Shown piece after piece: positions 10,160 through 56,784 of a stretch of 64,000 nucleotides of DNA (within the stretch, counting starts at the first letter, position 1; each line of letters starts with the position of its first letter). The notes below the pieces were generated by a model that saw nothing but the letters and a program-made list of their open reading frames with translations, searched no databases and had not been told where the DNA came from. A program made the position numbers and the translations under genes. Origin of the DNA: an uncultured delta proteobacterium (GTDB lineage Bacteria; Desulfobacterota; Binatia; UBA9968). The stretch lies in assembly GCA_963755715.1 (NCBI GenBank), contig CAVWLW010000076.1, forward strand, positions 32,001 to 96,000. The letters are read 5' to 3'.

Positions 10160-10173
10160 TGGCGTTCTCCTTT

Positions 10174-10817: not shown

Positions 10818-11997
10818 CACTGACTCCTCAGCAGTAAATTCTTTCGGTGTGCGGCGCCAAGAGCGGAAGCGACGCCAGGCCATGGCCAAACCGGTCCAGA
10901 CGAGAAAACAGCCGCCGAGAGAGGCGAGTCCGGCGACGGTCTGGCCGGGCAAGCCGAACGCTTCGCCGGTGTGCAGCGCGCGCACCCAGGTGCGCAGCTT
11001 TCGCCCCGTACTGTTGTTGGCATAAGGCTCCCATTTCACGACGGCGCCGGTGGCGCGATTGAGCGTGAGTTGCGAGCGCTGAAATGGATGAAAGGCATCG
11101 GGTCCTTGTATCGAAGCGGTGACCGGCCCGTCGCCGTGCGGTTGAAAACGCAACATGATCATCACCCAACCCGGCACCTGCTCTTGTGCCCGCGCCAATA
11201 GAACCTCGAAGCTCGCCGCTGGAACAGCAGCGCGAGTTTCGTCGCGTTGGCCGCGCGCGCGTACTCCTTGAGCTGTGGGATCCACGGGCCCTTCGGCCCG
11301 GCGTGGTGGTTCGCTGCCCGTAAGCGTGTACAACAAGTCATTTGCCCAGGGATAGGACATGACCGCCGCGGTCAGCGTGAGCACAACCAGCACCGTTGAA
11401 GACCAAAATCCGATGACGTTGTGCCAGTTCCAGTCGCGCGCTTTGCCGCGCAAGCGGGTACTGAACAGCAAACTCATTTTGAATCCGCGCCATTGCCAGC
11501 TATGCGGCCACCAGAGATAGACGCCGGTGATCGCAAGCCAGAAGAAGGCGAGATTGCAGGCGCCGGTGATGGCGCGGCCGTGGCGCGGCCTTCGCCTTCG
11601 GTGCCGAGCCAGCGGTGCCAATCGACAACGTCGCGCAGAAAATTATGGGTCGGCCGACTGTCCGCCTAGGATCTCGCCGTTGTAGGGATTGACGAAGACG
11701 GTATTGTCGCGGCCAAGATTGACCGCCACCGATGCTGTGGGATCGGACTTGACCATAATCGCCGCCGGGCGCGCTATCGGGATTAGCCGCGCGGACTTTG
11801 GCGATGAGCTCGTCGTAACTCAAGCGTCTGGCGTCAGGACCGGGCACGACCCAGCGCGCGCTACGTTCCGAATAGTCGCTGATCTGGGGTTCGTACATGA
11901 GTACCACGCCGGTGAACGACATGATGAAGATCACCAAACCGGCGCTGACGCCGGCGAACAGGTGGCTCCAAAAAATTATTTTGTGTAGCAATTTCAT
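10626..11997 (-). CDS. PepSY-associated TM helix protein (PiuB-like), several frameshifts
   Basis: MKLLHKIIFWSHLFAGV...SFTG, HRWL, ITGVYLWWP, WHNVIG, ALHTGE and WTGLAM are spread over three frames. Confidence 0.8.
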
Positions 11998-12019
11998 AAT
12001 CACTACTCTCCGTCTCAAA

Positions 12020-12565
12020 CTAACCGACCGTGCGGTTCTTGAGATCGCTGAATTCGGCGCGCAGCCAGTCGCGCAAAAGATCCTTTTCGTAGCGCAGGTA
12101 GTCTTCTCTCAGCCGCGAGTCCCGTCGTTGATAGTCGACGTCAGTCAACTCGCGTTTGCCTTCTTTGATGACCCGGCCGTTATCGTCGATAAGACGAAAT
12201 TCGAGGACGATGCGCGGCGGATAAATGCTCTTGATGATGCGCGTCTGATTGAATGGCACGCCAAGCCATGGCTCGAAGTCGCCCGCCAGTTTGACGTCCG
12301 TAACTTTGATCGACAGCTGCATCTCGGGCGGCAGCGCGCGCTCACCGGTTTCCTGCATGAACTTTGCGAGCGCGGCGAGCAGGCCGTGGGAATTGTGTTC
12401 CCATTCGGTGCGTCTTACGTCGGTAAATTTCTCCGGTTCGACGAAGGTGACAGAAACGCTCGAAACATGTTCCGGGGCTACAAATGGCGTGGCGCAACCC
12501 GATACGAACAAGGCGGCGATGATCAGCACTCGATAGATAGGGCGAGACAAAGAGCGCATTACCAT
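12020..12565 (-). CDS. DUF3016-family lipoprotein
   Basis: Lipobox FVSG|C; VTFVEPEKFTD, TDVKLAGDFEP, IYPPRI and LRYEKDLLRDW match this family from memory. Confidence 0.7.
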   Translation of the reverse strand: MVMRSLSRPIYRVLIIAALFVSGCATPFVAPEHVSSVSVTFVEPEKFTDVRRTEWEHNSHGLLAALAKFMQETGERALPPEMQLSIKVTDVKLAGDFEPWLGVPFNQTRIIKSIYPPRIVLEFRLIDDNGRVIKEGKRELTDVDYQRRDSRLREDYLRYEKDLLRDWLRAEFSDLKNRTVG

Positions 12566-13246
12566 TTATACCTCGGCGCAGCGCCTTAAAAGGTTGTGAT
12601 AACAATTGGTCAATTCCACGACGGCCGCATGGTTGGGCAAAGCTTGGTTGACTTTGTTGATGGCCATGTCGAGATCGAAAAGCAGAGTTCGCTGGCCGTC
12701 GTCACGCACCATACTCTGCACCCAGAAAAAAGCAGCCAGTCTGACACCGCGCGTCACCGGCGTCACATGATGAAGGCTACTCCCCGGGTAGACCACCATA
12801 TCCCCCGCAGGAAGTTTTACCGAGTGCGATCCATAAACGTCGTCGATGACTAGTTCCCCGCCGTCGTACTCATCGGGTTTGCTAAGGAAGAGTGTTGCAG
12901 AGATGTCGGTACGAATGCGGTAGGGCGTGCCGGGAATCTGCATGATAGAGTTATCCAAATGTATCCCGAACGTTTCGCCGCCTTCGTAGCGGTTAAAGAG
13001 CGGCGGAAAGACCCGGAGCGGCAACGCCGCTGTGATGAAGAGCGGGTTGCGCTCCAGCGCCGCCACAATCGTATCGCCGAGCTCCCGCGCCTCGGCGCTG
13101 GTATCCGTGATCTGCCGGTTTTTTTTGACAATACTCGATTGGTAGCCGGAGGTCGCCCGGCCGTCCACCCAGGCCGCGCGGCTCATGACCTCGCGGCAGT
13201 GGGCGACTTGTTCCGGGCTTAACACACTAGGAACCGTGACGATCAT
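12566..13246 (-). CDS. piuC: PKHD-type Fe(II)/2-oxoglutarate dioxygenase (PiuC/YbiX)
   Basis: [56 protein letters not shown]. Confidence 0.9.
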
Positions 13247-13258
13247 AGATGGGTATCC

Positions 13259-15452
13259 TCAGAATCTCGCGCTCACGCTGCCGATGAACGTGCGCCCGGC
13301 CCCCGGCACGCTGTGCGAAGGATGCACGGCCTCAATGAAGAACTGGTTGGTCATATTCAGAGCGTTGAAACGCAATTGAATTTTCTCCGTCAGATTGTAC
13401 GCGACCGTGGAATCCCAGCGGATGTAGCCGGGGACGCGGTTAATGTTGGCGTTATTGGCGTAGCGGCTGCTCACGTAGGTGGGCCCGCCGCCGATCTGCC
13501 ATTTCTCCAGGAAGTCGTAGGTGCTCCAGAAGTTGGCGCTATACTTGGGGATGTTTTGCGGGACTTTGCCTTTAAGGGGAATGGTGACTCCCTCCACTAC
13601 TTGAGTATCGTTCGACTTAAGGATCTCCGCGTCAAGATAGGTATAGCTCGCAAAGACGTTCCAGCCAGGGAGAATGCGGCCAACCAAACTCATCTCAAAT
13701 CCTCGCGATCGTTGTTTGCCGTCGAGCGCCTGAACGCCGGTTGCCGGGTCATTGGTGCGGGCATTGGTCTTTTCGATGTTGAATAGCGCCGATTGGAGAT
13801 TTAGCGCGCCCTGCAAGAAGCTCTAATTTTGCGCCGATCTCGAAGATCTCGTTTTTTTCCGGCGCCAGAGCCTCGTTGTTGGCGGCAAGCACCAACCCTT
13901 CGGCCGAGGGATTGAAGGATGTGCCATAGGAAAAGTAATAGCTTTGCGTCGGCCTGGGATGGAAAACCAACCCGCCGCGGTAGCTCATCAGATTATCCGT
14001 ATGCTCGAAATCTATCCCGCCCGGCAACCGGTTGTCTTGTTTAGCGCGGTAGTAGTCGTACCGGAGCCCGCCGACGATGTCGAAATATTCGCCCAGCCTG
14101 ATCTGGTCGGCACCATAAATACCGAAGCCGGTCGCCAGCGTGTCTTGCTTCACGTTGACCGTTTTGGCCGCCGGCAACTGGTTGTTATTAGGATCGGAGA
14201 GGGTCGTAGCGGGGCCGGCGCTTGCCCAACGAAGTTGATCGAAAGTTTCACGGCCCACCTCCAGGCCGGTGGTGAGTACGTGCTTGAAGCTGTAGGTATC
14301 GAATTTGGCGGTGAGATCCATCTGATTGCTGAGAATACTTTCTTGCGTATCTCGTTCCGGCCGACTCCTAGTGACGCCGGTCACGATGGCCGCGGGTCCA
14401 TTACAAGTAACGTTGCTGCATGTCACGGCGGGAATGCTGGGATCGGCATGGCGGTCGATATGGCTGTAGCGCAGCACGTTGCGCAGGCTTATCTGATCAT
14501 TGAAGGCGTGGTTGATGATGCCCGTGCCAATATTGGTAAATGTTTTTTCAAAGTCGCTTTTGGTCAGCCCGTACCACGTGTCGCGGTCAACGCGCACCGG
14601 CTTGCCGTGGAGAAAGGGCAATCCATCGTCCGGGATATTGTCCTCGTGCTGACCGAAGTAACTCACGGTCGCCTGTGTCGGTGTGCCCAGACCGTAGGTA
14701 AATGAAGGTGCGATGCCTTGGCGCGACCCTTCGACATGATTGCGCTCCACGATATCGGCTCGCTGCGCCATGAAGTTCAAGCGCAGAGCGGAGTTTTCCC
14801 AAAGAGGCTGATTGAAATCTCCCGTGCCCCGGAAGTACGTGCCACTGCCGCCGTTGAACACGCCGCTGTACAGAGATTCGGATAGCGGCATCTTGCTCAC
14901 CTGGTTGATGATGCCGCCGGTGGAGCCGCGACCGAAATAGCTGGAAGAGGGTCCCTTGATAACTTCGACGGACTGGATATTGAAGACGTCGCGAAAATAG
15001 GATCCTTGATCGCGGACACCGTCGATGAACATGTCATTGCGCGCGTTGAAGCCGCGCAGCGTGAAGCCGTCTCCCTGCGAGCCGCCGGCTTCGCCTGCGG
15101 TAATGCCGATGCCGGAGACGTTGCGCAGCGCGTCGCGCAGGGTGGTGCCGCCCTGCTCCTGGATTAACTTGTCCGGCACGACGATAACCGCTTGAGGCGT
15201 GTCTTGCAGCGGCACGGCAAATTTCGGCAGCGAAGACTGCGGCACGACATAGGGGCTATTTTGTTCTTGCACTACCACCGGCGGCAGGTTGATAGGTTCC
15301 TCTTTCTTGGGCTCCGCAGCGAAGGCGTTGCTGGCCAGAGCGAAAGAAAAAGCCACCGCCCGGCTGACGCCTTCGCCGGCCGCAAGACACATTTTTTGCA
15401 AAGCTGTCTTGTTTTGTTTTCTATCGTTGGCGCGTTTTTGTTGTCGACTCAT
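13259..15452 (-). CDS. TonB-dependent siderophore receptor (Fiu/PiuA-like), frameshift near 13815
   Basis: Plug motifs DTPQAV, LRNVSGI, LRGF, FIDGVRD, VEVIKGPSS, GGIINQVSK. The barrel continues in ORF 13259-13816 and ends PGAGRTFIGSVSARF (terminal Phe). Confidence 0.9.
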
Positions 15453-15528
15453 GCATTCCTCCAATGAAGTATATTTTTGCTGGCTGGCATGAGTCGGCTC
15501 ATACTCTGGCTGGCTGGGTTGGTAAGTT

Positions 15529-15720
15529 TTATTTCGTCAAAATAAGCTTGCCGTTTCGCGTAATGCGCAAGTTGTATTCCTGATTCTGATGCACGATGAC
15601 GATCTCGCTGTTGCCTTGAAAAAGGTGGTTGCTTTCGATGCGCGGTTTGGGGCTAGTCGAAGCGGACGCGATCGCGCCGCCCGGTCGTTTCATCGCATAA
15701 TCCATAAGTATCTCTCTCAT
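15529..15720 (-). CDS. hemP: HemP/HmuP hemin uptake protein
   Basis: IESNHLFQGNSEIVIVHQNQEYNLRITRNGKLILTK is the characteristic HemP C-terminus; start codon uncertain. Confidence 0.85.
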   Translation of the reverse strand: MREILMDYAMKRPGGAIASASTSPKPRIESNHLFQGNSEIVIVHQNQEYNLRITRNGKLILTK

Positions 15721-15728
15721 CGGTTTTC

Positions 15729-16550
15729 CTAGCGAAGCTCGAACTTCACCGGCAACATTACCCATACCGCCACCGCTTCCTTGCCCCTGCGAGCCGGTTC
15801 GAAGAGCCATTTTTTTACGGCGTCCATCGCGGAGAGATCGAGCTCGCGAAAGCCGGCGGATTGCTCCACGATGACGTCTGAGACCCGGCCGTTTTCCAGC
15901 ACGCGCACGCGGAGCGTGGTCACGCCCTGCGCGCCCGCTCTGCGCGCCGACTCCGGATAGCGCGGCTTAACCTGATAGCCGCCGAGCGGCCGGGCAACGC
16001 TTGAAAGCCCTTCGCCGGAACCGCCGCCGCCGGTGCCGTCGCCCTTGGCGCCTCGTCCCAGACCCGCGCTGCCAGTGCCGCCACCGCCGCCTTCGAGGCT
16101 GCTGCCGCCGATTACAGCTGTGTCGCCTTTGCCGAAAAGATTGCCGGCACCGGCGGCGCTGCCTTCGGCTTCGCTTGCTTTGGATCCGAGATTCCAGCCT
16201 GCGTTGGCCGAGCCTTTGTTGTCCGACAATGACGGCGGCGGCGCCGGCTCGATCGGCTTTTCTTTGATTTCTGCTTTAGAATTTCCCAGCGGCGGCACGG
16301 GCTTGGTCTCAAGCGTCGGCTTGGAAAGAAGTTTCGGCGCGGTAATATTTTTTGGCTTTGGCGCCGGCGGAGGCGGTGGCGCGACTTCGATTTTCTTCGG
16401 CTCCTCGACGCGCGGCACGTCGACGAGCTCGATGGGCACCATGGCGGGTTTGATCGGTTTGGCGTGCATTACTAATGCCGCCAGCGGAATGATCCCCAAA
16501 TGAATCAACGATGACGCAGTAAATGACGATACCAACCAGCGCTCGTTCAT
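15729..16550 (-). CDS. tonB: energy transducer TonB
   Basis: N-terminal TM with SLIH, Pro-rich and Gly-rich linker, C-terminal PRYPESARRAG…KKWLFEPA domain. Confidence 0.9.
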   Translation of the reverse strand: MNERWLVSSFTASSLIHLGIIPLAALVMHAKPIKPAMVPIELVDVPRVEEPKKIEVAPPPPPAPKPKNITAPKLLSKPTLETKPVPPLGNSKAEIKEKPIEPAPPPSLSDNKGSANAGWNLGSKASEAEGSAAGAGNLFGKGDTAVIGGSSLEGGGGGTGSAGLGRGAKGDGTGGGGSGEGLSSVARPLGGYQVKPRYPESARRAGAQGVTTLRVRVLENGRVSDVIVEQSAGFRELDLSAMDAVKKWLFEPARRGKEAVAVWVMLPVKFELR

Positions 16551-16960
16551 TTTTTCTGCTCCTTTGGTTTGACCGCGATCGCCATCTTGGCGACGTTGGC
16601 GCTGCGCGCGATGTCCATGACTTCGACGACATGGCCATGCTCGACGCCGTCGTCGGCATTGATCACGACCAAAAGCTCGGGATTTTTGGCGATTAGCCCG
16701 CCCAATCGGTCCGCTAAAGAGGTTTTCTCGACGGGCTGTTTATCGAGAAAGATCTGGTGTTCTTTATTGATCGTGATGGCCGCACTCTCGGCCGGCGCTT
16801 GCTGGCCAGAAGCGGCTTTGGGCAGATTGACCGGCATGCCTTTGAATTGCGTCATCGACAAAGTCGAGATCATGAAAAAGACCAGCAGGAAGAAGATCGT
16901 ATCGATCATCGGGATGATCTCGATGCGCGCTTTTTTTATGCTGCGGCGTTGAATGCGCAT
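16547..16960 (-). CDS. exbD: biopolymer transport protein ExbD
   Basis: EIIPMIDTIFFLLVFFMI, VNLPKA, INAD...VVEVMD. Confidence 0.9.
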   Translation of the reverse strand: MRIQRRSIKKARIEIIPMIDTIFFLLVFFMISTLSMTQFKGMPVNLPKAASGQQAPAESAAITINKEHQIFLDKQPVEKTSLADRLGGLIAKNPELLVVINADDGVEHGHVVEVMDIARSANVAKMAIAVKPKEQKK

Positions 16961-17568
16961 CAGTGTTTCCCCGCTTGGACGTGCAACTGCAATTCGAGCG
17001 ACGAGCTGAAATGTTCCATCTGGTCCATTTCCCGTTCCGCCCGCGCGGTGAAGTAGTTGTAGGAGACAAGGGTCAGGATCGCGATCAACAAGCCGGTGGC
17101 CGTGGCGATCAAAGCTTCGGCGACGCCGCCGGTAACGGCGTGAGGTTGCCCGATGCCCACATCGGCCATGACGTCGAAGGAGCCGATCATGCCAACCACC
17201 GTACCGAGCAAGCCGAGCAGCGGCGCGAGCGTGACGATCGTGTCGAGCACGCCGAGACGTCTTTTCAGCACCGGGATCTCGGCCTGGGCAGCCGCTTCCA
17301 TCGCCTTCGCCGGCGCGGGATTGCGGTGCGCAATGCCAGCGGCCATGACTCGCGCGATCGGTTGCTGCGAGGTTTTTCCCAGCTTCAAGGCTTGGTCGAA
17401 TTCGCCCTGCTCGACGTGCGTCAAAATTTCGCGGAGCACCTCTCGCGATTTCAGTTTCGCCCAAAACAAGATTCGCTCGATGGTGAGAGCGAGCGAGATT
17501 AAAGAACAAATCAGGAGCGGTATCATGACGATCCCACCCTTGACGATGACGGCAACGACCTGCGCCAT
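16960..17568 (-). CDS. exbB: MotA/TolQ/ExbB proton channel
   Basis: TLAPLLGLLGTVVGMI and GVAEALIATATGL. Confidence 0.9.
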   Translation of the reverse strand: MAQVVAVIVKGGIVMIPLLICSLISLALTIERILFWAKLKSREVLREILTHVEQGEFDQALKLGKTSQQPIARVMAAGIAHRNPAPAKAMEAAAQAEIPVLKRRLGVLDTIVTLAPLLGLLGTVVGMIGSFDVMADVGIGQPHAVTGGVAEALIATATGLLIAILTLVSYNYFTARAEREMDQMEHFSSSLELQLHVQAGKH

Positions 17569-17570
17569 GA

Positions 17571-17771
17571 CTAGTGCACCGATCCTTTCTTGACTTCTGC
17601 GTCGAGTCGCTCGACGCTGTCCGCCACGCTCTGCAACGCCAGCCCCAGGGCGCGCAAATCATCGAGGGAGATATGCAGCACACAATTGCCGTAATGAAAG
17701 TGGACGGTATCTCGACTGCAGTTGCACAGAGAGACCGACCATTTGCCTTCGCGCGATTTGATTCCATCCAT
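17571..17771 (-). CDS. 66-aa hypothetical protein with CxC and HxH motifs
   Basis: RBS GGAGG then ATG; MDGIKSREGKWSVSLCNCSRDTVHFHYGNCVLHISLDDLRALG...; stop 2 nt before exbB. Confidence 0.6.
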   Translation of the reverse strand: MDGIKSREGKWSVSLCNCSRDTVHFHYGNCVLHISLDDLRALGLALQSVADSVERLDAEVKKGSVH

Positions 17772-17784
17772 TTTGACCTCCAAT

Positions 17785-17830
17785 AAAAAAGCCCGAAGTC
17801 CCGCCGATTGTTCCGGCGCGCATCGGGCTC
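17785..17830 (-). terminator. terminator-like hairpin with U-tract inside the 5' leader of the exbBD-tonB operon
   Basis: Minus strand GAGCCCGA-tg-cg-CGCCG-gaacaat-CGGCG-ggact-TCGGGCTT-TTTT, immediately before the GGAGG RBS. Confidence 0.55.
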
Positions 17831-17862
17831 TGGATTCATGACCGCTGGCCGCTGACTTATTT

Positions 17863-17891
17863 CGTATATTAAAATGAAAATTAGTTGTCAA
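17863..17891 (-). promoter_or_regulatory. sigma70-type promoter TTGACA-N17-TATACG
   Basis: Perfect -35 at 17891-17886 with a 17-nt spacer; identical hexamers to the promoter at 26190-26218. Confidence 0.6.
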
Positions 17892-17906
17892 CACTAATAA
17901 AAAAGA

Positions 17907-17920
17907 TTAGTCTATACGAA
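17907..17920. promoter_or_regulatory. putative DtxR/MntR operator (copy 2)
   Basis: Reverse complement TTCGTATAGACTAA matches TTCGTATAGGCGAA at 26188-26201 at 12 of 14 positions. Confidence 0.5.
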
Positions 17921-17948
17921 AGACTGGGCAAAAGGGCTCTAATCAGAG

Positions 17949-18128
17949 TCAGCTAGTCGGTTTCGACACGGTTGGTCGGTCGGTTGCGGCCAACAACGGA
18001 ATGACCCACCGTCTTTTACAGCGACGACACTTGAGCTCCACTCCATCTGGCACTAAACGGGCCAGGAGATTGCCGCATTGACAGCGTAACGGCTCAGCGG
18101 GCGATTTTTTGGCGGCTTCTTTTTCCAT
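17949..18128 (-). CDS. Mu Com-like zinc-ribbon microprotein (copy 1)
   Basis: MEKEAAKKSPAEPLRCQCGNLLARLVPDGVELKCRRCKRRWVIPL...; the C-x-CG..LLA…(I/L)KCxRC pattern resembles the Com family. Confidence 0.65.
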   Translation of the reverse strand: MEKEAAKKSPAEPLRCQCGNLLARLVPDGVELKCRRCKRRWVIPLLAATDRPTVSKPTS

Positions 18129-18189
18129 CGAAAAACCAAGTAAATTTTCACGTTTGCTTCGACCGTGGCAGCAAGCAGACGCGAGCGAA

Positions 18190-18750
18190 TCAGGCGCGAT
18201 TACGGCGGAACTCTTTGTCTCGATGCCTTGCAGCCCTGCTGCGGGCGCTGTTCGAGGGCTTCTCAAGCTCGAGCAGCTTGGCGGTCCAGCCCCGCCCCGC
18301 CAGAATATGGGCGCAGAGAAGCGGCAAAGCGATCAGACCGATCACCCAATGGATCGTGCTGCTAAATTCGCGCACGGCGTCATCGCTCACGTAGTAGAGC
18401 AGCCAGCCGGATAGCACCAGCACGCCGTTCAGCGCGATCATCGTGAAGCCTGACAGACGGTTTGCCTTCAGAGCGGTGCCGCGCCGGATATGCGCGATGA
18501 GCGTGCCCAACAGCGCGAGGTAGACAAGCATGGTTGCGCCGTGAACTTTCATGCTGATCGTTTGCAGCAAAGTTCGCGCTACGCCAAGCTCCGGATCCTT
18601 GAACCACTCGATAAGCAGCCACAAGCTTCCACTGCCCCACAAAACGCCGAATACAATATAGAAGAGCCGGCGGTGCCAAGGTTCGAGCCGCACCTTCTCC
18701 CGCAGCAAGGCGACGATCTTGGCGGTGCGATCAGTGGCTTTATCGCTCAT
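18190..18750 (-). CDS. membrane protein with four in-membrane His, putative cytochrome b-type partner of a flavinylated protein
   Basis: Three to four hydrophobic helices with KVHG, IAHI, TIHW and CAHI; directly downstream of apbE. Confidence 0.55.
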   Translation of the reverse strand: MSDKATDRTAKIVALLREKVRLEPWHRRLFYIVFGVLWGSGSLWLLIEWFKDPELGVARTLLQTISMKVHGATMLVYLALLGTLIAHIRRGTALKANRLSGFTMIALNGVLVLSGWLLYYVSDDAVREFSSTIHWVIGLIALPLLCAHILAGRGWTAKLLELEKPSNSARSRAARHRDKEFRRNRA

Positions 18751-18766
18751 TGGATCTCGATCCCAC

Positions 18767-19696
18767 TCAGATTATCTCCTGCATCTGAGCGGGCCTAAAC
18801 CGCGGTGGATTCCCGAGGCTTCGCCGTCGCGCCGATTGCGCAATGCAACGAACACCGCGCCCGTCGATGATAATCGCTTGTGCGCCGAATTGCGGCAAAA
18901 TTTTTGCCGCGCGCCGCGGCGCCAGACGAACGACCTTGGTGAGCGCATCGGCAATCAGGCAACGCGGTGCGACGACGGTGACGCTCTGTTGCCAACGCAT
19001 TGTGGTGTTTCGTCGCGGATCGACCAGTGGATCGGTGCTATCGCCATCTTCGCGGCGCTCGGTAAAGCAGCCGCTGGAGCTTGCGACCGCCGCGTCTGTG
19101 AGAGTGCCAAGAGAAAATAATCGCGACGCATCTTCGGGGTGACGAATATGGATTGGCTGAGGGGCGCCGAAGGCGTAGAGATCGCCACCGGCGTTCACAA
19201 TGCCGCTGTCGACGCCGTTGCATTTGAGCGTTGCAGCCGCTCGATCGACCGCATAGCCTTTGGCAATCCCGCCAAGATCAATCCAGGCGCGGCGTCGTAA
19301 CAGCACGCGATTGTCGGAAAGCAAACTCAGGTCGCGGAAATTGGCTTCTTCAGACGGCCATTCAGCATCTTCCGGCTTGGGCAAAAACCCCGCAGCGACG
19401 AGCTTGCCTCCGACCGTGATGTCGAACGCTCCGTCGGAGAGCGCGCTGATTTTTTGCGCCCAGGAAAGGACTTCATAGGTTCTCGGGTCAACTTGCTGCG
19501 CAGTCAGAAGCGGCGCGCGATTGAGGCGCGCTATATCGCTGTCGGTTTCGTGAAAACTCATCAGCCGATGGATGATTTCAATTTCACGAAAAGCCGCCTC
19601 GATGGCCGGCGCGGCGTTCTCGCCTGCGGCACCGACTTCGACGAGCGTACCCAGCAAGGGCCGGGCGCGGCGTATTTCATTTGAAAGCGACTTCAT
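18767..19696 (-). CDS. apbE: FAD:protein FMN transferase (ApbE)
   Basis: LLGTLV, SDIARLN, SDGAFDIT, DLGGIAKGYAVD, VNAGGD, ADALTK. Confidence 0.9.
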   Translation of the reverse strand: MKSLSNEIRRARPLLGTLVEVGAAGENAAPAIEAAFREIEIIHRLMSFHETDSDIARLNRAPLLTAQQVDPRTYEVLSWAQKISALSDGAFDITVGGKLVAAGFLPKPEDAEWPSEEANFRDLSLLSDNRVLLRRRAWIDLGGIAKGYAVDRAAATLKCNGVDSGIVNAGGDLYAFGAPQPIHIRHPEDASRLFSLGTLTDAAVASSSGCFTERREDGDSTDPLVDPRRNTTMRWQQSVTVVAPRCLIADALTKVVRLAPRRAAKILPQFGAQAIIIDGRGVRCIAQSARRRSLGNPPRFRPAQMQEII

Positions 19697-20208
19697 AGGT
19701 TGCCAAAACCCGTTTCACGCCGTCGGCGATGTGGCGGCACGAGAGCGTCGCGCCGCTGATGTTCTTGATGTCTTTATTGAGTTTGAGCGGCGCCGCCGCG
19801 TTCTTGCCGACAAACTGCGCGCGCCAGTCGGCGTTGCGCACTTCGTAGCCGTAGCTTTCCCGATAGGTCAGGATCTCGATTTGCTTAACCGTGCCGTCAG
19901 GCGTTGAGGCCGACGGCGTAGGTGATGAATTCGTGTTTGCCCACCACCTCGTCGACTACGAAGAAGCCGCCGTTGGCCACTTTCCACAATTGTATTTCTT
20001 TGTGCCTGACGTTGGCGTCGCTGCGCCGCGCAATTTCACGCGCCTGCTCGTTAGTGAGCGTGATATTAGCCGGCGCGAGTTTTTCCCCAGGGAAAATCGC
20101 TTGTTGTGCTTGCTCCACGGTCAGATAAGTGGCGCCATACGCGGCTGGGGCCAGTATGGCGATGGGGATCTGTGCCGCCGGTAGCCATATCCATTTCGAG
20201 GTACGCAT
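19677..20208 (-). CDS. FMN-binding (flavinylated) exported protein, frameshift near 19900
   Basis: GKHEFITYAVGLN then, in the shifted frame, DGTVKQIEILTYRESYG...WRAQFVGK...IKNISGATLSCRHIADGVKR...FK*. SGAT is the ApbE flavinylation motif. Confidence 0.8.
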
Positions 20209-20300
20209 AGCTATCCCTTACTAAGTGAAGCCGAAAGCGTCATTGCGGCGCGGATAAAAATCCGTAAGCATTGGCGTCTGCCCCGGAAGAATGCCGCTCT

Positions 20301-21178
20301 CTAAAACACCCATGCAACCTTGAGACGAAATTCGTATCGTTCGTGCTCTTCCAATTCCAGGTTGCGGGTTCGTCCCGGTGTAGGCGGCGTGCCAGCCACC
20401 TGGTTCAAGAAGGTGAAAGTGAACCACCATTTTTCTGCGGCGTAGTGGATATTCGGCCCGAGAAAAAAAGCGCCCTCCTGGGGACCTTTAAATTCAGGAT
20501 ATGCCGCATGATAGCGGCCCTCGAGACCGACAAACCACTTTGGTGCGAAGCGATAGGAAATGCCCAAGGTATGCTCTACCTCCAGCTCTCTTTCACGCTC
20601 TCCGCTGGATTTGAACTTCGCCCACTCGGGCTCCAATGTCAGATTGTAGCCGAGGGCCAGTTGATCGTCGAAGAAGTTTTTTTGCAAAATAATTTTGCTC
20701 TCCAAGCCGAACTGATCCATGCGCTCGCCGGAGACCCTGTCAATTCGCGAATAGGACGGTTCCAAATACAGAGATAGTCCGAAAAGATCTTTGTAGACGC
20801 TCAACAGGTTGTACTTGAAGGCGAAATTCACGCCATTAAACTCGAGCCCACGAGAAATGTCGCGGTCCGGATCGTCTTCGAGGGCGCCGCCGGAGATCTG
20901 GTGGGACCGGCCTTTCAGATAAAAAGACGCCTGAAAACGGTCCGTGAAACCGTGTTCCAACTCGAGCATCTCATCCCAACCTCGGTATGTGCCTTTACCT
21001 TTGCTAGCACGAAGGGTGAGCCAATTATAAAGTTCGGTGCCGCCCTTTGGCAGGGTATCGGTACCATAAAGATAACCCCAGAGATTTTCATCGGCGTGAG
21101 CCGGCGGCAGAAAAAACAGCGCGGCGATCCACAGCACCGCCGCCAGCGCTAGGGGAAATCAAATGATCGAAAAAACAT
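20301..21178 (-). CDS. putative outer-membrane beta-barrel protein (DUF6662-like); frameshift in signal peptide near 21150
   Basis: RBS AAGGAG and ATG 21178; AHA|DENLWGYLYGTDTLPKG; alternating amphipathic strands; terminal VAWVF. Confidence 0.65.
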
Positions 21179-21401
21179 GACTGCTCCTTTCAAAGATTAA
21201 AGTTGAGGCTTGCTCGCTTCGTTGGATTGCACATCGGTGACCAGCACTACCTTGCTTCGTGCACCCATCTGTACAAAAGAAATTCATAGCCCGACTCCTT
21301 CCTTAGTTATTTTGCGAAGCACTGGGCTCTGGATTCTCGACCTCTGGCCGCTGAAGGATCCTGTTGTACGAAGCTTTTTACACGACTTACACTGTCTATC
21401 C

Positions 21402-21537
21402 TCACGGTTCCTTTGGTATCGACGCGGAAGAATCGACGCGACGTTTGCAGCGCCGGCACTTGATTTCTACGCCTTGCGCTGACTAACCGCGCCAAAAGAC
21501 TGCCGCAACAACAGCGGAGGGCGTCCTCATCGCGCAT
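21402..21537 (-). CDS. Mu Com-like zinc-ribbon microprotein (copy 2), frameshifted near 21478
   Basis: MRDEDALRCCCGSLLARLV then, in the shifted frame, QGVEIKCRRCKRRV; a clear paralogue of 17949-18128. Confidence 0.55.
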
Positions 21538-21587
21538 AGCTAGAACGGCATCCTGCCGCGATGTTTGATCCGGGCTTAAACTGCGAA

Positions 21588-23628
21588 CTAAGACTCCACA
21601 GGTCCTTTCTTTCCTGCGCCGACCCACAGGAAAGTCGCAAAAAACGCGCATAGCATAAGCGCTTGAGCCGCTAAACTTTCCAAGGTCGGATAAATTCCCA
21701 GCAGCGGAATCTGCGGCGGGAAACCAAGGGGGTTGTCGAAACCCAGCCCGCGGCCTGTAACTCTTTAATACCGTTACCGGCGAAAATGAACGCAATGATA
21801 TAAAGGAAGGTTCCGGTGACGCCGAAGAAATATTTCAACGGAACTTTGAGGCCGAGCTTCAAAATGGCAAAGGTCAGCACGACAAGAACCGCCAGTCCGG
21901 CGATGAATCCCCAAAGAATCAGATGATGGTCGTTTTCGTTCTGCAGCCATAGCGCTTGGTAAAACAACACGACTTCAAAAGCCTCACGATAGACGGCAAA
22001 AAATGAAATTCCCACCAGTCCGAGAATCTTCTTGCCGTCGACCACGTTCTGTACCTTGTCGTGAATGAAGCTCTGCCACTTCTTGGCCTCGGACTTCGTA
22101 TGCAGCCAATAGCCGACGTAGAACAAAGCTACGGCGGCAAAAACCGAGATAAAGCCCTCCATGCTTTCGCGATGTTGTCCGCTGAAAGTCAAAAACGTTT
22201 GAGTGGCGACCCAGGTGAGGCCGCCGGCGACGAGGGCGAGGACCCAGCCGATGATGGATGTAGCGAACGGCATGCGGTGGCGCCCATGACTTTGAGCATC
22301 GCCAGGATCGCGGCTAGAACCAAAGTCGCTTCCAGTCCTTCGCGCACAATGATCAGCGCGGAATTGAGGAAAAAATAGATGCCCGAGTAGTCGTCGTTGC
22401 GCGCGATGATTTCGCTGGCCCGATCGAGACCCGCTTCGATTTCACTGCGCCGTTTGTCGATCTCTTCCGGCCCAACTCCCTGTTTGATGGCGTTACGGTA
22501 CGCGGTGAATAAGCCCTCGAGGCTGCGGCCGAAGGAGGCGTCTTTGGCGAATAAGGCGGGCTCGGCCAGCTCGTAGCCGTCGATGTAGGCATCGACGGCC
22601 TTTTGATAGGCTTTTTCTTTTTCTCCGGCGGCATAGAGCGCTGCGCTTTCGCGCACCAAGTTCCGAGTCAGCACCAGCGGGTCCGCCGGCTTTTGTTCCA
22701 ACAGACCGCGGCGCAGATAAGCGAGGACATCGTTGACCTGATCTTCCTGATCGAAATAACTCTTAAGTTGTTCCGATAGCTGTTCATCGGAGTCGGTTGC
22801 GAGATTCGCCACGGCGGTCAGCTCCGCCGGCAATTTTTTCTGCTGTATCAGCGCCGCGCCGCGATCGGCTTGTTCGCGCGAGAAACGCAAGGACATGACA
22901 TAGAACGCGACCTGCCAGCGCTGCTCCTCGCTGAGCGCCGCAAACGAAGCCATCGCCGTTCCCTCCACGCCGAAGCTCGCCGTGTTGAAAGCCTTAAACG
23001 GCGACAATCCCGCCATTCGCTCAGGATCGGTGAAATTCGCCGGCGCGGGCGTCTTGGGATTCATCGAACTTCGCCCCGGTCCATCGCCCTTGCCGCTCTC
23101 GCCGTGGCATTGGGCGCAATTCTCCACGTAGAGTTTTTGGCCTGAGTCCAAAGACGGCAACTGTTTAGGATACGGAACGATTTTATATGCGGTGATCAGT
23201 TTTTCTTTGGCGTTCTGGGCGAGCTCGGCGACGATCTGGGGCTCGGCTTTTTTGTCGATCTGTGCGGCCAGTGATTTAATAGTCGATTCGATTCCGGCTC
23301 TGTCCGCCTTGTCGGCTTGTTTGAGCTGATTGAAAAGTTCTTGGCTGCGCTTGGAGAACTCCTGCATCTCGGCGTATTCGTCGGCGCTCAGGATCTTGCC
23401 GTCCTTGACGGCGTTTTTGTAGTCGCTGCCGAGATAGTCGAGTAGCGAGACCAGCCGCTTGGCGTCATCCGGTTGGGCGAAAGCCAGAGGCGCGGTGCTC
23501 AAGAGCGCAGCGATTGCCAGGAAACAAAAGAAGAGACGGCGGATACCGGGAATTCGGTTAAGTCGGTTGTCTGAGAAGCTACGAAAGCAACGGGTCGAGG
23601 TGGTTTTATTATGAGATGGAGGTTCCAT
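21588..23628 (-). CDS. cytochrome c / FTR1 iron permease fusion (PbrT-like), frameshifts near 22265 and 21720
   Basis: LLDYLGSDY..EYAEM N-domain, CAQCH heme c motif, REGLE and REAFE (two RExxE FTR1 motifs), C-terminal LGIYPTLES...VES*; start uncertain. Confidence 0.85.
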
Positions 23629-24401
23629 AGATCACGATGCTGTGCGCCGCCAGAAGATAGCGCCTGTCGTAGCCAGGCGCTGATGCCGTCCATGACAAGC
23701 ACGATCACCAACACCAATAATAAGATGGTTGCCAGCCGCTGATAGTCCAAACTCTGCAGATAGATTTGAATGACGAAGCCTAAGCCGCCGGCGCCGACGA
23801 AGCCGAGCACCGAGGAAGCGCGAATGTTGTACTCGAGCATGAACAGCACTTGGGCGAGAATCGCATTGGCGGCCTCGGGGACGATCACGAAGCGGACGAG
23901 TTGCAGCTTGGAAGCGCCGGTGCTTTGCACCGCCTCGATGATCTCCGGATCGGTGCCTTCGAATAAGTCGGCGTAGATCTTGGCGAGATAGCCGACGGTG
24001 TAAGCGGCGATGCCCAAGGTGCCGGCCAGCGGGCCGAGACCGACGAGGATGACGAAGATAATCGCCCACAGCAGCACGGGCACGGTGCGAATGCCCGCCG
24101 CGATAAAGCGCGCAAAGCTGGAAACCCACGACGAAAACAACCTGCGAGTGCCGAGAACGCTCAGCGGTAGCGACGCCAGGAAGCCGAGAAGGGTGCCGGC
24201 AAACGACATTTCAACGGTCTCCCACAAAGCGGCGCCGACGGTCGGCAGGATGCCGACGTCCGGCGGCAACATCTCCGAACCAAGAATGCCGAGATTGCGC
24301 ACGCCGCGCGCGAGGCGCTCGAGATCGAAAAAGCCGAGGTGCGCCAGCACGGCCAACAAAAAAAAGCCGGTGGTGGCGGGGAGAACCAAGCTGGTCTTCA
24401 C
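23499..24401 (-). CDS. phnE: PhnE/PtxC-type ABC transporter permease (3' end probably frameshifted near 23665)
   Basis: ETVEMSFAGT, RTVPVLLWA, GLGPLAG, EAVQSTGA, EYNIRASSVLGFVGAGGLG. Confidence 0.8.
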   Translation of the reverse strand: MKTSLVLPATTGFFLLAVLAHLGFFDLERLARGVRNLGILGSEMLPPDVGILPTVGAALWETVEMSFAGTLLGFLASLPLSVLGTRRLFSSWVSSFARFIAAGIRTVPVLLWAIIFVILVGLGPLAGTLGIAAYTVGYLAKIYADLFEGTDPEIIEAVQSTGASKLQLVRFVIVPEAANAILAQVLFMLEYNIRASSVLGFVGAGGLGFVIQIYLQSLDYQRLATILLLVLVIVLVMDGISAWLRQALSSGGAQHRDLWNLHLIIKPPRPVAFVASQTTDLTEFPVSAVSSFVSWQSLRS

Positions 24402-25148
24402 AGGCTGGCCTCGGCGCGCGCTGACTCGCGCAGTTGATTGCCGATATAGCCGGGCACGATCTCGCCGTCTTTGAGCGCGAGCACGTCGTCGCCGAATTGA
24501 CGCGCCAGGCCGAGCCGATGCATGCTCATGACGAAGGTAATGTTTTCTTTATCGGCGGCGCGGCGGATGCGCATGAGAATCTCCGACGCCAGGGCGAGGT
24601 CCAAGTCGGACGCAAATTCGTCGGCGATCACGATGCGGGGATGTTGCAGCAGGGTGCGCGCGATGGCGACTCGCTGGCGCTCCCCGCCGCTCAGACGAAA
24701 AACCTGCTCGGAGCGCTTGTGGGCGATGCCCATCATATCGAGCGCGGCCTCGGCCCGATCCGTTTCGGCGCGCGGGAACAGGCTGAAGAGTGCTTTGCCG
24801 ACGCCGATCCGGCCAAGTGAGCCCATCAAAACATTGTCGAGCGCTGAGAGACTTCTGACCAATCCCAATTGCTGCGGGATGTAGCCGATCACAGAACTGA
24901 GCCGGCGTTGGCCAAAGCCACTGGTCGGCTCGCCGAAAACCGCGACCCGCCCTTCGTTTGGTTTCAGAATTCCCGCCAACACCCGCAACAGCGTGGTCTT
25001 GCCGGTGCCGGAAGGGCCCATGATGACCGTGTGTTGACCGGCGGGAATCGACAGCGACACATCGCGCAGTACCCAATCGCGGCTGCGATAGGCGAACCAA
25101 ACTCGGTCCGCTTGGAGAGCGGGTAGCGCTGTCGCTATTCGAGGTCAC
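24398..25148 (-). CDS. phnC: PhnC-type ABC transporter ATP-binding protein (frameshift near 25120)
   Basis: GPSGTGKT Walker A, LSGGERQRVAIAR, IADE; GTGA overlap with the binding-protein gene. Confidence 0.8.
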
Positions 25149-26076
25149 AGACGCTCCGTAAACTTTAGATTTGCCGCTTTCAGATATTTTTGCAGCGAGC
25201 CGAGATGCTCGCTTGCCGTAGTCGGCTTGAAGCCGACGAAGATGCTGGAAATAAACGTGCGCATGAGCTCGCGGTGCTCAGGCGCGCCGAGCTTGACGAT
25301 GGTTTGCACTGCGCGGGTGCGCAGCGGGTCTTTCAACTCTTTGCTGAGCACGACGGCGTGGGAAGGGATCGGCCCTTGCTGCTCGATGGTGCGGCTGCCG
25401 GCTAGAACTTCATTGTAAAGCTTCTCCGGCACGTCGCCGGCGATGATCGTGGTGTCGACTTGGCCCTGCTTCAAGCGCTTGCCAGCACTGGCCGTAGCCG
25501 CCGCCGAACAGCACTTCTTTAAAATAGCCTTTGGGGTCGGCTTCTTTGCCTTCGCCCGGCTGCAACAGATTCATTTCGATCATGCGGCCCATCGGCGCGA
25601 CGAATCCAGAGGTCGAAATCGGACTGGGGAAGCAAGCGCTCTTGCCCTTCAACGAAGGCAGGTCTTTGTACGGCGAGTCGGGAGCAACAACCCAATAAGA
25701 AAAATAGTGCGGCGCCTCGACTTTATCTTTGCCGTGCAGCACCTGCCGAATCTCCGCCAGGGCGACTTCGGCGCCGCCGAGCCGGACCGCGAGCTGCGCC
25801 GGCCATGCCGACATGAAGGCGAGGTGCGCGTGGCCGAAAGCGAAGCGATTCCACCACGGCGGCGTAACTGCTTGGCACGTAGATCTCGACTTTGGTTCGG
25901 CCACCCAAGCCTTTTTCCATAAACTGCTGCAACGGTTTGGCCTTGTTCAGCATCTCGTCGCTCGCCACCGTCGGTTGGATCGCAACCACGAGTTTATTTT
26001 GCGCAAAGCTCAAGCTCGGCACGAGCGCAGCCAGAGCTAAAGCGAGCACTAGGTGCTGGCGAAAATATCGCTTCAT
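25145..26076 (-). CDS. phnD: PhnD/PtxB-type substrate-binding protein (frameshifts near 25840 and 25475)
   Basis: Signal peptide, SSYAAVVE, AFMSAWP, HYFS, SPISTSG oxyanion motif, GPIPSHAV. Confidence 0.75.
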
Positions 26077-26187
26077 CGCGGGCTCCTTTTCGCTTGATCT
26101 AGACAACTATCTTTACTATAAGATGGTTGTGTGATGAATTGTTCATACATTAATAATTTAATAGTAACCACATGTTAAAGTCAAAAG

Positions 26188-26218
26188 TTCGTATAGGCGA
26201 AAGAAAAAAGTTTGTCAA
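26188..26218 (-). promoter_or_regulatory. sigma70 promoter TTGACA-N17-TATACG overlapped by palindrome TTCG-N6-CGAA (putative DtxR/MntR operator)
   Basis: -35 at 26218-26213, -10 at 26195-26190, inverted repeat at 26188-26201 just before the repressor start. Confidence 0.55.
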
Positions 26219-26228
26219 GGCTACGGAA

Positions 26229-26888
26229 GTGCCCCAAGTCAGCCACGCCTTGGAAGACTATCTGAAATCGATCTATCAGCTCGCCGAGGAATCCCAGCCA
26301 GTCATCGCCGCGCGCATCGCCGCCGAAACCGGCGTTTCGCCATCTACTATATTTACCACGCTGCAGCGTTTGGCCCGGGAAGGTTACGTGACGATTAACC
26401 GGCATAAGGAGATCCATCTCACCCAGGATGGCAAGACGGTGGCGGAGAGAATCGTGCGCCGGCATTTTTTAACCGAACGCTTTCTCACCGACCTGCTCGG
26501 ACTCGATTGGGTAAAGGCCCATCAGGAAGCACACCGTTTAGAGCACGCGATTTCTCAGGACGTGGAGGAGCGGCTGGCCAAGTTATTGAGTAATCCGACG
26601 ACCTGTCCGCACGGGAACCCTATCCCGGGGGCGCTAGCGGGGCCAGCACAGAAGACTATTCCGCTCAACGAAGCGTCGGATGGGCAGAGCGTCGAGCTCG
26701 ATTTCATCACCGAAGGCGGTGAGCGCGACGTGCGCTTGCTGAGTTTTCTGCAGGAGCATGGCATGCGCCCCGGCGCCAAAGTCCATGTTCTCGACGTGGC
26801 CCCTTCGCTCGGCATGATGACTTTAAAAGTCGGCGCCGACGCGTTTTCTCTAGGGCTTGAAGCGGCGAAGAAAATCCGCGTTCACTAG
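26229..26888 (+). CDS. DtxR/MntR family metal-dependent repressor with C-terminal FeoA/SH3 domain
   Basis: EDYLKSIY, wHTH, RRHFLTERFL, EAHRLEH, CPHGNPIP, GMRPGA. GTG at 26229 is the likely start. Confidence 0.9.
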   Translation: MPQVSHALEDYLKSIYQLAEESQPVIAARIAAETGVSPSTIFTTLQRLAREGYVTINRHKEIHLTQDGKTVAERIVRRHFLTERFLTDLLGLDWVKAHQEAHRLEHAISQDVEERLAKLLSNPTTCPHGNPIPGALAGPAQKTIPLNEASDGQSVELDFITEGGERDVRLLSFLQEHGMRPGAKVHVLDVAPSLGMMTLKVGADAFSLGLEAAKKIRVH

Positions 26889-27059
26889 TGTCCTGACTCA
26901 GAAATTCGCAATATAATTCGATCGTCATTCCGGGCAAGCTGGCGCAGCTAGCGCGACCCAGAATCCAGGAATTTCAAAGGCATCTGGATATCGGCGTCCG
27001 CCGGTATGACGGATAACCGTAAACAACTTGTTTAACGAACTTCCGGGCCAGGACACTAG
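26885..27059. mobile_element. MITE-like element with ~24-bp imperfect terminal inverted repeats and CTAG ends
   Basis: Left CTAGTGTCCTGACTCAGAAATTCG; right end reverse-complemented CTAGTGTCCTGGCCCGGAAGTTCG; internal GTCATTCCGG...CCGGTATGAC palindrome; no ORF. Confidence 0.65.
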
Positions 27060-27245
27060 CTAGTCTGGCGGGTTGCTGAGAAAAGATGAGGAATGCTTCG
27101 AGCGTCTCAGGGTGACGGAAAATTACCAGCGATATCAATCCCCCTTCTTTGTCCTTGACGGACTCAAAGGGTTCTGATGCCTGTCCAAAGACGCCGAGAG
27201 GATTTTGCGATTTTGCGGAACTGGCTAGGGATTAAGTAGTGAGGA

Positions 27246-27518
27246 CTAGTCCTCGCTGGACGGCACGGCGATGATTGATGATCCCGAGTCGGCCTGACGC
27301 TCGGCTAGCTCGCTGGTGAGAAATTCGATTTGATCGCTGAGACGGGCGTCACGATCGATCAGAATCAGGTCTCGTCCATTCACCCGGCAGCTACCGCTCT
27401 TGGCCCGATATCCTGCCTCGCGTAAGAGTTTCTCGGTGCGCACGTGGATGTTCATGCGTTTGGCGCTGAGGATGAGCTCCTGCAGGCGGGCTTCCTGTCT
27501 ATTTTTTGGCGCGACCAT
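27246..27518 (-). CDS. conserved hypothetical protein
   Basis: Compact 90-aa ORF with VRTEKL…SGSCRVNG…ILID pattern; plausible coding composition. Confidence 0.65.
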   Translation of the reverse strand: MVAPKNRQEARLQELILSAKRMNIHVRTEKLLREAGYRAKSGSCRVNGRDLILIDRDARLSDQIEFLTSELAERQADSGSSIIAVPSSED

Positions 27519-27680
27519 GACCTGAGCGGATTATCCATAATATTGCCGCAATTGTAAACCGCGAGGCCAATTTTCTCCTTGCAAAAACGTCCTTCCTTGT
27601 TATCGTAACTTTGCGGATTTGATTGGAAGTTCGAACGGCGCAGGGACGTTTGCGCGCTCGGCAAACGTCAGGAGGTCGGC

Positions 27681-28517
27681 ATGATCAAAAACATTCTTGT
27701 CCCTCTGGATGGTTCGGAACATTCCAAAGCAGCGCTCGATTATGCCATTTGGATTACCGAGAAATTTAATGGCACGCTTTTCGGCCAGCATATTATCGAT
27801 ACGATCTCGATCGAAGGCACTTTCTTTCACGATATCTCCGGTTCCCTCGGCTTCGAGCCGTATTTGGATTTCTCTAGCAAGATGCGAGAAATCCTCGAGG
27901 AGCGGGGCAAAACCATTCTCGAAGATTTCGCCGCGCGCTGTGAAAAGAAAGGCATCCGTTACACCGCTCATCTCGATATGGGATTGATCGCCAATGAGAT
28001 TTGCGAGCGCTCCAAAGTTGCGGATCTGGTGGTCCTCGGGCATCGCGGCGTCAATGAAGAATTCTCCACCGGACTTTTGGGCACCACCGCGGAAACGATC
28101 ACGCGCAAGTGTCCGCGGCCGGTTTTTGTTTCGACAAGACAATTCAAACCGGTCGAAAGCCCGCTGTTGGCTTACGACGGCAGCCAACGCGCGAGTTCGG
28201 CGATGGAATCGGCGGCGGAATTTTGCACGGTGCTGCATTTGCCGCTGACCGTGCTGACGGTTTCCCGCGACGAGTCCGTGATTCGCGCCAATTTACAGCA
28301 AGCCAGAGGCTATTTGGGCTCCTACCCGATTGATGTGACTTACGAGACCGCGAGCGGTTATCCGGAGCAGAAAATCGTCGAGCAACTGGTTAGCCGCAAT
28401 CATGACCTGCTATTCATCGGCGCGTACGGCCACCGGCGGATCATCGAAATGGTGCTCGGCAGCACGACCGAATACGTGCTGCGTAACGCGCCTTGTCCGG
28501 TATTCCTGAATAGATAG
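27681..28517 (+). CDS. tandem-domain universal stress protein
   Basis: ILVPLDGS, DLVVLGHRG, LLAYDGS, GAYGH, VLGSTTEYVLRNAPCPV; RBS AGGAGG. Confidence 0.9.
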   Translation: MIKNILVPLDGSEHSKAALDYAIWITEKFNGTLFGQHIIDTISIEGTFFHDISGSLGFEPYLDFSSKMREILEERGKTILEDFAARCEKKGIRYTAHLDMGLIANEICERSKVADLVVLGHRGVNEEFSTGLLGTTAETITRKCPRPVFVSTRQFKPVESPLLAYDGSQRASSAMESAAEFCTVLHLPLTVLTVSRDESVIRANLQQARGYLGSYPIDVTYETASGYPEQKIVEQLVSRNHDLLFIGAYGHRRIIEMVLGSTTEYVLRNAPCPVFLNR

Positions 28518-33642: not shown

Positions 33643-33768
33643 CGAGAAGCAATTTTATCACATGTCTAGCGAATTTTTCGACGTGAGGTCCGGTGTGGGG
33701 CAGCTAAACAATCGTCAATCGGCGTGTTAGTTGAAGTCTTCATCGAAGGCGTGCAGCGTAGGCGGCTA

Positions 33769-43970: not shown

Positions 43971-44019
43971 GGATCGGCTTTGGACCCGCCGGATCGTGGA
44001 ATTTTGCTGAAATAAGCCC

Positions 44020-56668: not shown

Positions 56669-56673
56669 TGGCA

Positions 56674-56765: not shown

Positions 56766-56784
56766 AGCCGCGTGAGGGACCGTT

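Follow-up and report, generated by a model that had tools for sequence, protein, structure and literature searches.

We analyzed a 64,000-nucleotide (nt) stretch of the genome of an uncultured delta-proteobacterium of the Binatia (GCA_963755715.1, contig CAVWLW010000076.1, positions 32,001 to 96,000), hereafter the window, whose minus strand carries an iron locus with two genes for small proteins resembling Com of phage Mu. According to Pfam assignments and the map of open reading frames (ORFs), the modules on this strand follow the order cytochrome-c/FTR1, Com2, DUF6662-ApbE, Com1, and small protein-ExbB-ExbD-TonB-HemP-TonB-dependent receptor. The original prediction, made from the sequence of the window, had described two Cys4 microproteins, the second frameshifted, each closing one module and preceding the leader of the next. 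Both genes are present where it had placed them, the peptide it quoted lies in the Com1 translation, and the described arrangement is correct for Com2, between the FTR1 and DUF6662-ApbE modules, as well as for Com1, ahead of the ExbB module.

Com1 (17949-18128, minus strand) is, by translation, a 59-amino-acid (aa) Com-like zinc-ribbon protein with the Cys4 pattern CxC...CxxC, and its start codon is the same as that of a 58-aa homologue with 93% identity. Com2 (21402-21537, minus strand) is a paralogous gene with a one-base frameshift at 21474-21477. From the ATG at 21537, 21 codons are in frame, and the remainder up to the stop codon at 21402-21404 is one base off; a single four-letter step at 21474-21477 gives a continuous 44-aa Com2 whose core length and pattern match those of Com1. 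The true start of Com2 may be farther upstream than 21537, up to about 21594, as an intact homologue is similar to the window from 21567 onwards. These two genes were the sole credible matches in the 7.4-Mb genome.

Database searches returned 49 close homologues with an almost invariant core and four conserved cysteines, the reference genomes gave 361 pattern matches, 350 of which encode a relative, and the family comprises 1166 representative clusters (E ≤ 0.001), which together place the microproteins beyond chance. Relatives occur in genomes and metagenome-assembled genomes (MAGs) titled Binatia, Myxococcota and delta-proteobacteria. Eleven of the 49 homologues are named "phage FluMu protein Com" by JGI (Joint Genome Institute), and none of the 49 carries a precomputed Pfam domain. 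The protein is strongly basic, with an invariant KCRRCKRR in its core. The AlphaFold (AF2) model consists of a three-stranded ribbon core, with a predicted local distance difference test score (pLDDT) of 76-92, and disordered tails (pLDDT <50). A sequence search of the PDB gave only chance matches, to C1 domains of protein kinase C (E ≥ 0.7), and with the model as query, Foldseek found no PDB structure at E ≤ 0.001, a ribbon this small being uninformative in such a comparison.

Relationship to phage Mu Com

Com has so far been studied as a single-purpose phage regulator of mom, and our search of open-access papers and preprints found no description of Com-like proteins in iron loci. We extracted the Mu Com sequence from the annotated record of the phage and gathered 21 relatives, each with a PF10122 domain. 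Using hhalign, we then compared an alignment of Mu Com and 19 of these relatives (A3) with the alignment of the window family (A1). The two alignments matched with 96.6% probability (E 4.9e-10, 37 columns), and BLASTP aligned the Com-like protein to Mu Com with 39% identity over 44 residues. The check suggested in the original prediction, a hidden Markov model search against the Com family, failed: neither of the two window proteins matched PF10122 (Zn_ribbon_Com) at E ≤ 1 in the Pfam scan, and one of 51 family members touched it, with an E value of 1.7. The NCBIfam scan gave no Com match for the window proteins, and a generic zinc-ribbon identity was discarded, as all such matches in the Pfam and NCBIfam scans were sub-threshold. 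Throughout the subfamily, the first knuckle is CxC, not CxxC as in Com, and the second is CxxC. Because the Pfam Com model missed these proteins but the profile-profile comparison was significant, the window proteins belong, as judged from their sequences, to a distinct chromosomal Com subfamily with a CxC first knuckle.

The subfamily shares with Mu Com a length of about 60 aa, an N-terminal Cys4 zinc ribbon, a disordered tail, the core RC..C..LL...(V/I)E(L/I)(K/R)C.RCKR, and the position of the gene directly upstream of its presumed RNA target. Apart from the knuckle and the score below the Pfam threshold, it differs from Mu Com in being chromosomal and located in iron/heme uptake loci with no adjoining prophage or mom. 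The statement that no prophage genes are nearby was borne out, since Pfam assigned no phage family to any of 60 window proteins (17 proteins of the locus and 43 further ORFs). Neither a mom-type target gene nor a prophage context was found in the window; the neighbours there and in related loci are iron genes.

A conserved leader element and its distribution

The regions just 3' of both Com genes have in common a repeat of 36 nt, which contains an element of about 35 nt whose two window copies are 86% identical. Element 1 (17821-17855, minus strand; 47.9 bits with a covariance model), at the 5' end of the leader of the ExbB module, has the layout CCAGCG, 3-bp hairpin, CCAGAG. Element 2 (21320-21354, minus strand; 45.4 bits), 49 nt past the Com2 stop codon, has the layout CCAGAG, 3-bp hairpin, CCAGAG. 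Across copies, the element consists of two CCAG(A/C)G half-sites around a covarying 3-bp hairpin, and the half-sites and a putative outer GGC/GCC helix are invariant. Besides both window copies, 61 of 81 related Com copies are followed by an element 23-166 nt past the stop codon. Copies were strongly biased in strand, with 82 on the Com strand and 3 on the opposite strand in 1.32 Mb, and the covariance model gave 88 matches in 1.39 Mb, 87 of them on the Com strand. A further 21 copies occupy other module junctions of the same loci and do not directly follow Com. As a separate observation, several relatives carry two tandem Com-like zinc ribbons in one chain (P0075, P0076, P0082, P0124, P0162, P0167 and P0190), an arrangement that fits a target with two half-sites.

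Covariation was evaluated in 73 distinct copies. Pair 19-29 was GC in 49, GU in 12, AU in 11 and another combination in 1, and pair 20-28 was UA in 52, CG in 18 and UG in 3. Within the 3-bp stem, 99.8% of cells were paired, none of 500 shuffles reached its score, and slid controls collapsed; the pattern used to select copies fixed some positions but left the 3' base of the second pair free. The 15 G-U pairs against 1 non-pair argue for an RNA of this strand. An alternative local hairpin, GGCC-NNN-GGYC, was rejected, as it was paired in 93.5%, showed no compensatory change and was broken in 12 of the 73 copies. Long-range pairing of the element with the coding start in Myxococcus-type leaders was also rejected, the consensus fold yielding only four weakly supported pairs. 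No Rfam 15 family matched at E ≤ 1 over window positions 11000-28000. Many unrelated metagenome contigs match the ~30-39-nt element alone at 21318-21359 and diverge on both sides; the element is a conserved island across organisms. One metatranscriptome contig covers 21184-21332, which cannot show transcription or transcript ends.

According to Nowacka et al. (2019; PMC6483171), Mu Com, an experimentally shown RNA binder, recognizes a short hairpin that adjoins the structure inhibiting mom translation and partly overlaps it. Systematic evolution of ligands by exponential enrichment (SELEX) with Com gave GAG(N)2CC / CC(N)2-3GAG, in most cases as a pair of copies flanking a stem of 3-4 nt (PMC6483171). 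The layout of the window element, with half-site, 3-bp stem and half-site beside an inhibitory hairpin, is the layout of the SELEX motif. The predicted target resembles that of Mu Com in being a short hairpin with CC..GAG-type half-sites that abuts or overlaps an inhibitory hairpin; here, CCAGAG/CCCAGAG half-sites flank the covarying stem, and the element abuts a terminator. In contrast to Mu, several copies of the predicted target occur per locus, and the role played in Mu by a ribosome-site hairpin, that of the inhibitory structure, falls mostly to a transcription terminator.

In leader 1, an intrinsic-terminator hairpin with a U-run (17785-17832, minus strand) has a 5' arm that starts inside element 1, and downstream of it lie UUUUUUAUU, GGAGG and the ATG of a 66-aa small protein. 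This hairpin folds at -27 kcal/mol (z -4.3), and none of 200 shuffles was as stable. The hairpin of leader 2 (21288-21328, minus strand), which overlaps element 2 and whose loop carries a Shine-Dalgarno-like AAGGAAGGAG, is weaker. When 33 leaders were folded to a consensus, the small hairpin led directly into a conserved stem, AGAGCCCGG/CCGGGCUCU, which encloses a variable inner hairpin and is succeeded by a U-run. Because the 5' arm of the terminator begins in the element, the second half-site is the base of the terminator. Taking as a terminator any GC-rich hairpin with its 5' arm beginning in the element and a U-run at its end, before the next gene, we found one in 43 of 84 element copies (median -25.3 kcal/mol), clearly for copy 1 and not clearly for copy 2. 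Myxococcus-type leaders have no U-runs and contain other hairpins near the ribosome site.

Reading leader 1 by eye, we noted a promoter-like TTGACA-17-TATACG (17863-17891) and operator-like TTAGT/ACTAA palindromes that both overlap and precede it (17863-17925, minus strand), and TTGACA-17-TATAC(G/A) is kept in all 14 of the 14 ExbB-type leaders printed. The position of this promoter places the predicted transcript start at the 5' edge of the element. A simple scanner for promoters and terminators missed both the conserved promoter and the terminator of leader 1; the promoter rests on reading and conservation, and the terminator on folding. The palindromes resemble DtxR/IdeR-type operators, and a DtxR-family gene is located at 26172-26888. 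A 42-aa ORF after leader 2 (21159-21287) was rejected as a gene, having no likeness to the small protein in any frame and no counterpart in the related loci L048 and L078, and its region is treated as non-coding leader.

We further examined the co-occurrence of the element and the protein across genomes. The genome of the window contained exactly two matches to the element pattern, one after each Com gene, and a reversed-pattern control gave 0. Five other genomes each carry between one and four true elements, and these share a locus with the one or two Com genes present. In the window's class, 33 of 151 genomes have the element and 56 have Com; every one of the 33 also encodes Com, and the element is absent from all 95 genomes that lack Com. 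In the Myxococcus class, 43 of 121 genomes yielded the element, 51 Com and 42 both, the exception being the weakest match. Taken together, the two classes comprise 76 genomes with the element, and 75 of these encode the protein as well.

The surroundings were compared in 79 related loci titled Candidatus Binatia, delta-proteobacterial MAGs, Myxococcus, Corallococcus, Sorangium and Syntrophobacteraceae, with window proteins used as probes to count neighbours. A cytochrome-c/FTR1 gene lies directly upstream of the Com-like gene in 35 loci, and DtxR is present in 31, TonB in 23, ExbB and ExbD in 19, ApbE in 15, and HemP and the receptor in 14. The expectation that homologues co-occur with FTR1, ApbE and TonB genes is thereby strongly supported. 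In Myxococcus, the Com-like gene precedes a TBDR-HmuY-HemS/ChuX-binding protein-ABC module (TBDR, TonB-dependent receptor; ABC, ATP-binding cassette); in Sorangium, a TonB-fused receptor; and in other Binatia, an unknown 466-aa protein, ApbE, imelysin and a di-haem oxidoreductase. By its genomic context, the subfamily is dedicated to iron and heme acquisition loci.

The first ORFs 3' of the element mainly encode products of five kinds, namely a ~70-aa CxC/HxH family, a ~93-aa family, cupredoxins, DUF6662 proteins and coiled-coil outer-membrane-like proteins of ~470-520 aa; TonB-dependent receptors, a ferritin-like gene and an imelysin module were found after elements as well. The commonest first gene belongs to the ~66-72-aa CxC ... 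HxH family (e.g., L013:10335-10547 and L088:15052-15267), which has no Pfam or NCBIfam match, shows conserved Cys and His and may itself be a metal-binding regulator. Members of the ~93-aa family stand first after the element and before ExbB in four loci (L011:10353-10634, L016:4585-4866, L023:14874-15155 and L010:17019-17315). One element copy precedes the ferritin-like gene (L019:19069-19715 and L024:18977), so the gene set of the element spans iron storage and uptake, which bears on the direction of regulation.

A possible relay between iron modules and competing explanations

We propose that each Com-like protein would recognize the leader RNA of the following gene module by its ~35-nt element. 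As the 3' half-site is the base of the intrinsic terminator, binding would block the terminator and transcription would enter the next module (antitermination); because the element overlaps the 5' arm, protein binding and terminator formation would exclude each other. In those high-GC relatives that have no U-runs, the bound protein might act by making the ribosome site accessible. Translation of the FTR1 module upstream would thereby govern how far the downstream modules are expressed, as a relay superimposed on DtxR-type promoter control. We consider the chances about even that a Com-type RNA binder relieves termination and thereby relays expression between iron modules, where both binding and the direction of its effect are inferred. 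Of the metal-sensing post-transcriptional relay envisaged in the original prediction, the post-transcriptional part gains indirect support from the covarying element with its terminator and from the genome-wide co-occurrence; the predicted target structure differs from that in Mu, being mostly a terminator. It appears rather improbable that the Cys4 zinc ribbon acts, in addition, as a metal- (Fe or Zn) or redox-dependent sensor-antiterminator at iron/heme module junctions. If it did, it would constitute a new RNA-level iron response, a prokaryotic counterpart of the eukaryotic iron regulatory protein and iron-responsive element (IRP/IRE) built from a phage-type protein.

Known systems offer partial parallels. 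BglG/SacY with ribonucleic antiterminator (RAT) RNA and the ANTAR regulators are protein-dependent antitermination systems, and they share with the window locus a conserved RNA element overlapping the 5' arm of a terminator in an operon leader. In contrast to these systems, the window locus has a protein whose fold, a zinc ribbon, is unrelated to CAT/PRD and ANTAR and which shows no evident sensing domain, and an element of much smaller size. RNA-binding control of iron genes is also provided by eukaryotic IRP/IRE and bacterial apo-aconitase; the control proposed here would likewise be of a protein-RNA type, but neither system has a sequence or structural relation to the window protein.

Several observations, in addition to the unmatched PF10122 model and the CxC knuckle, weigh against an antiterminating relay. 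Hairpin 2, at -14.7 to -19.8 kcal/mol, is not better than shuffles and has no clean U-run. The element alone folds weakly, again no better than shuffles, and its putative outer 3-bp helix is invariant. The half-site spacing, CC-N1 or N2-GAG, fits the published CC(N)2-3GAG only partly, and GCG replaces GAG in one half-site of many copies. No element lies near 20 of the 81 related Com copies, including those of all five Sorangium-titled loci, and 23 of 56 and 9 of 51 Com genomes of the two classes have no element match passing the strict filter at E ≤ 0.01. The co-occurrence may partly reflect co-inheritance of a gene and an element that share one locus, and related genomes within the class samples are not independent.

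Other explanations account for some of the same observations. The element could be sensed by a ligand or metal, as a compact riboswitch, or by another protein such as the CxC/HxH one, the Com-like protein having a different job. A conserved 5' element followed by variable downstream hairpins, with terminators in 43 of 84 copies and other hairpins in Myxococcus-type leaders, is the usual layout of a riboswitch, the 21 copies not directly after a Com gene would fit this explanation, and the frequency of the CxC/HxH gene after the element makes its product a candidate. However, a 3-bp covarying stem with a weak fold of its own offers little for a ligand pocket, the Rfam search was negative, the element occurs in 1 of 165 genomes without Com, that one being the weakest match, and it resembles the published Com SELEX motif. 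We regard this explanation as unlikely. The protein could also be a DNA-binding transcription factor and the element its operator at the start of the transcribed region, as suggested by the NCBI database name "Com family DNA-binding transcriptional regulator" and by the position of the element at the predicted transcript start in ExbB-type leaders, where repressors can act. Such a role is hard to reconcile with the experimental RNA binding of Mu Com (PMC6483171), with the 15 G-U wobble pairs, which a DNA palindrome would not favour, with the near restriction of copies to one strand (82 vs 3), and with the short-gap copies, which sit 23-60 nt past a stop codon with no promoter seen; we consider it quite improbable.

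A conserved promoter, element and strong terminator in ExbB-type leaders would yield a ~75-nt transcript, and sequence is more strongly conserved than structure, as might be expected if element and terminator formed an iron-regulated small RNA with a seed in its 5' part and the Com-like protein were a chaperone or unrelated. Against this, the first ORF, found for 63 of 65 matches examined, starts 5-137 nt past the element on the same strand, no promoter was seen between the two in the leaders printed, several copies occur per locus, and Myxococcus-type copies lack a terminator, which leaves a small RNA very improbable. The microprotein might instead be a non-regulatory iron accessory, engaged in metal handling or a subunit of a membrane complex, with the element being a conserved terminator region. 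Its tight synteny with FTR1 and the Cys4 site, which could bind iron as well as zinc, are in line with this role, to which we assign a low probability because the protein is strongly basic and shares homology with an RNA binder, and because it precedes unrelated modules (heme uptake, TonB, cupredoxin and ApbE) and so tracks the element, not one machine.

Soil lineages, among them the genetically tractable Myxococcus xanthus, carry the subfamily as a fixed part of their iron/heme uptake loci. If binding of the Com-like protein to the element were confirmed, the pair would represent a new protein-dependent antitermination system and a layer of iron regulation beyond Fur/DtxR and small RNAs. It would also provide a very small natural protein-RNA pair for engineering, with a core of ~35 aa and an RNA of ~35 nt.

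Neighbouring genes and frameshifts

Upstream of Com2 lies the cytochrome-c/FTR1 fusion gene (21606-23628, minus strand), which contains two frameshifts according to Pfam and tblastn frames. Module 2, downstream of Com2 (18190-21178, minus strand), encodes by Pfam a DUF6662 outer-membrane protein, a 103-aa protein, ApbE and a 186-aa membrane protein, and its gene order after Com recurs in L048 and L078. The first gene 3' of leader 1 encodes the 66-aa CxC/HxH small protein (17571-17771, minus strand), for which no Pfam or NCBIfam family was matched, and the rest of module 1 (13259-17568, minus strand) comprises ExbB, ExbD, TonB, HemP and a frameshifted TonB-dependent receptor, identified by Pfam and frame comparison. 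The DtxR-family gene (26172-26888, plus strand), of the DtxR/IdeR iron-dependent repressor type by Pfam, is divergent from the iron locus.

In this region (13259-26106, ~13 kb), intact homologues align in several frames: three for a PhnD-like gene, two for the TonB-dependent receptor and three for cytochrome-c/FTR1. A base missing from a C-run has apparently cost the DUF6662 gene its start. In all, at least six or seven shifts of a single base are found in otherwise well-conserved genes: two in PhnD-like, one in the receptor, two in cytochrome-c/FTR1, one in Com2 and probably one at the DUF6662 start. This abundance of single-base shifts in well-conserved genes points to assembly indel error rather than decay, and the frameshift in Com2 is probably such an error; a true pseudogene is a minority possibility that we consider doubtful, and programmed frameshifting is extremely unlikely. 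Contigs of relatives carry indels at and near the Com2 frameshift, and a contig of a related population that lacks one letter at 21477 and one at 21484 is suggestive, not decisive. None of the sequencing runs screened contained more than 21% of the sampled window words. The pattern of shifts is typical of indel errors in long-read assembly.

The iron locus continues leftwards (9485-12018) with a PepSY_TM protein (10626-11621) and a weak DUF4198 match (9485-10234), and this extension also holds DUF3016 and a PKHD-type 2OG-Fe(II) hydroxylase. Elsewhere in the window, a nitrogen-assimilation cluster (55250-63576) encodes glutamine synthetase, an NMT1-type binding protein and a Rieske-domain nitrite/sulfite reductase. 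The cluster also has an ANTAR response regulator (57528-58115), so that the window contains an RNA-binding antiterminator of a known type. Circularly permuted ATP-grasp, Alpha-E and transglutaminase genes occur in two sets, at 30203-37108 and 42537-45000.

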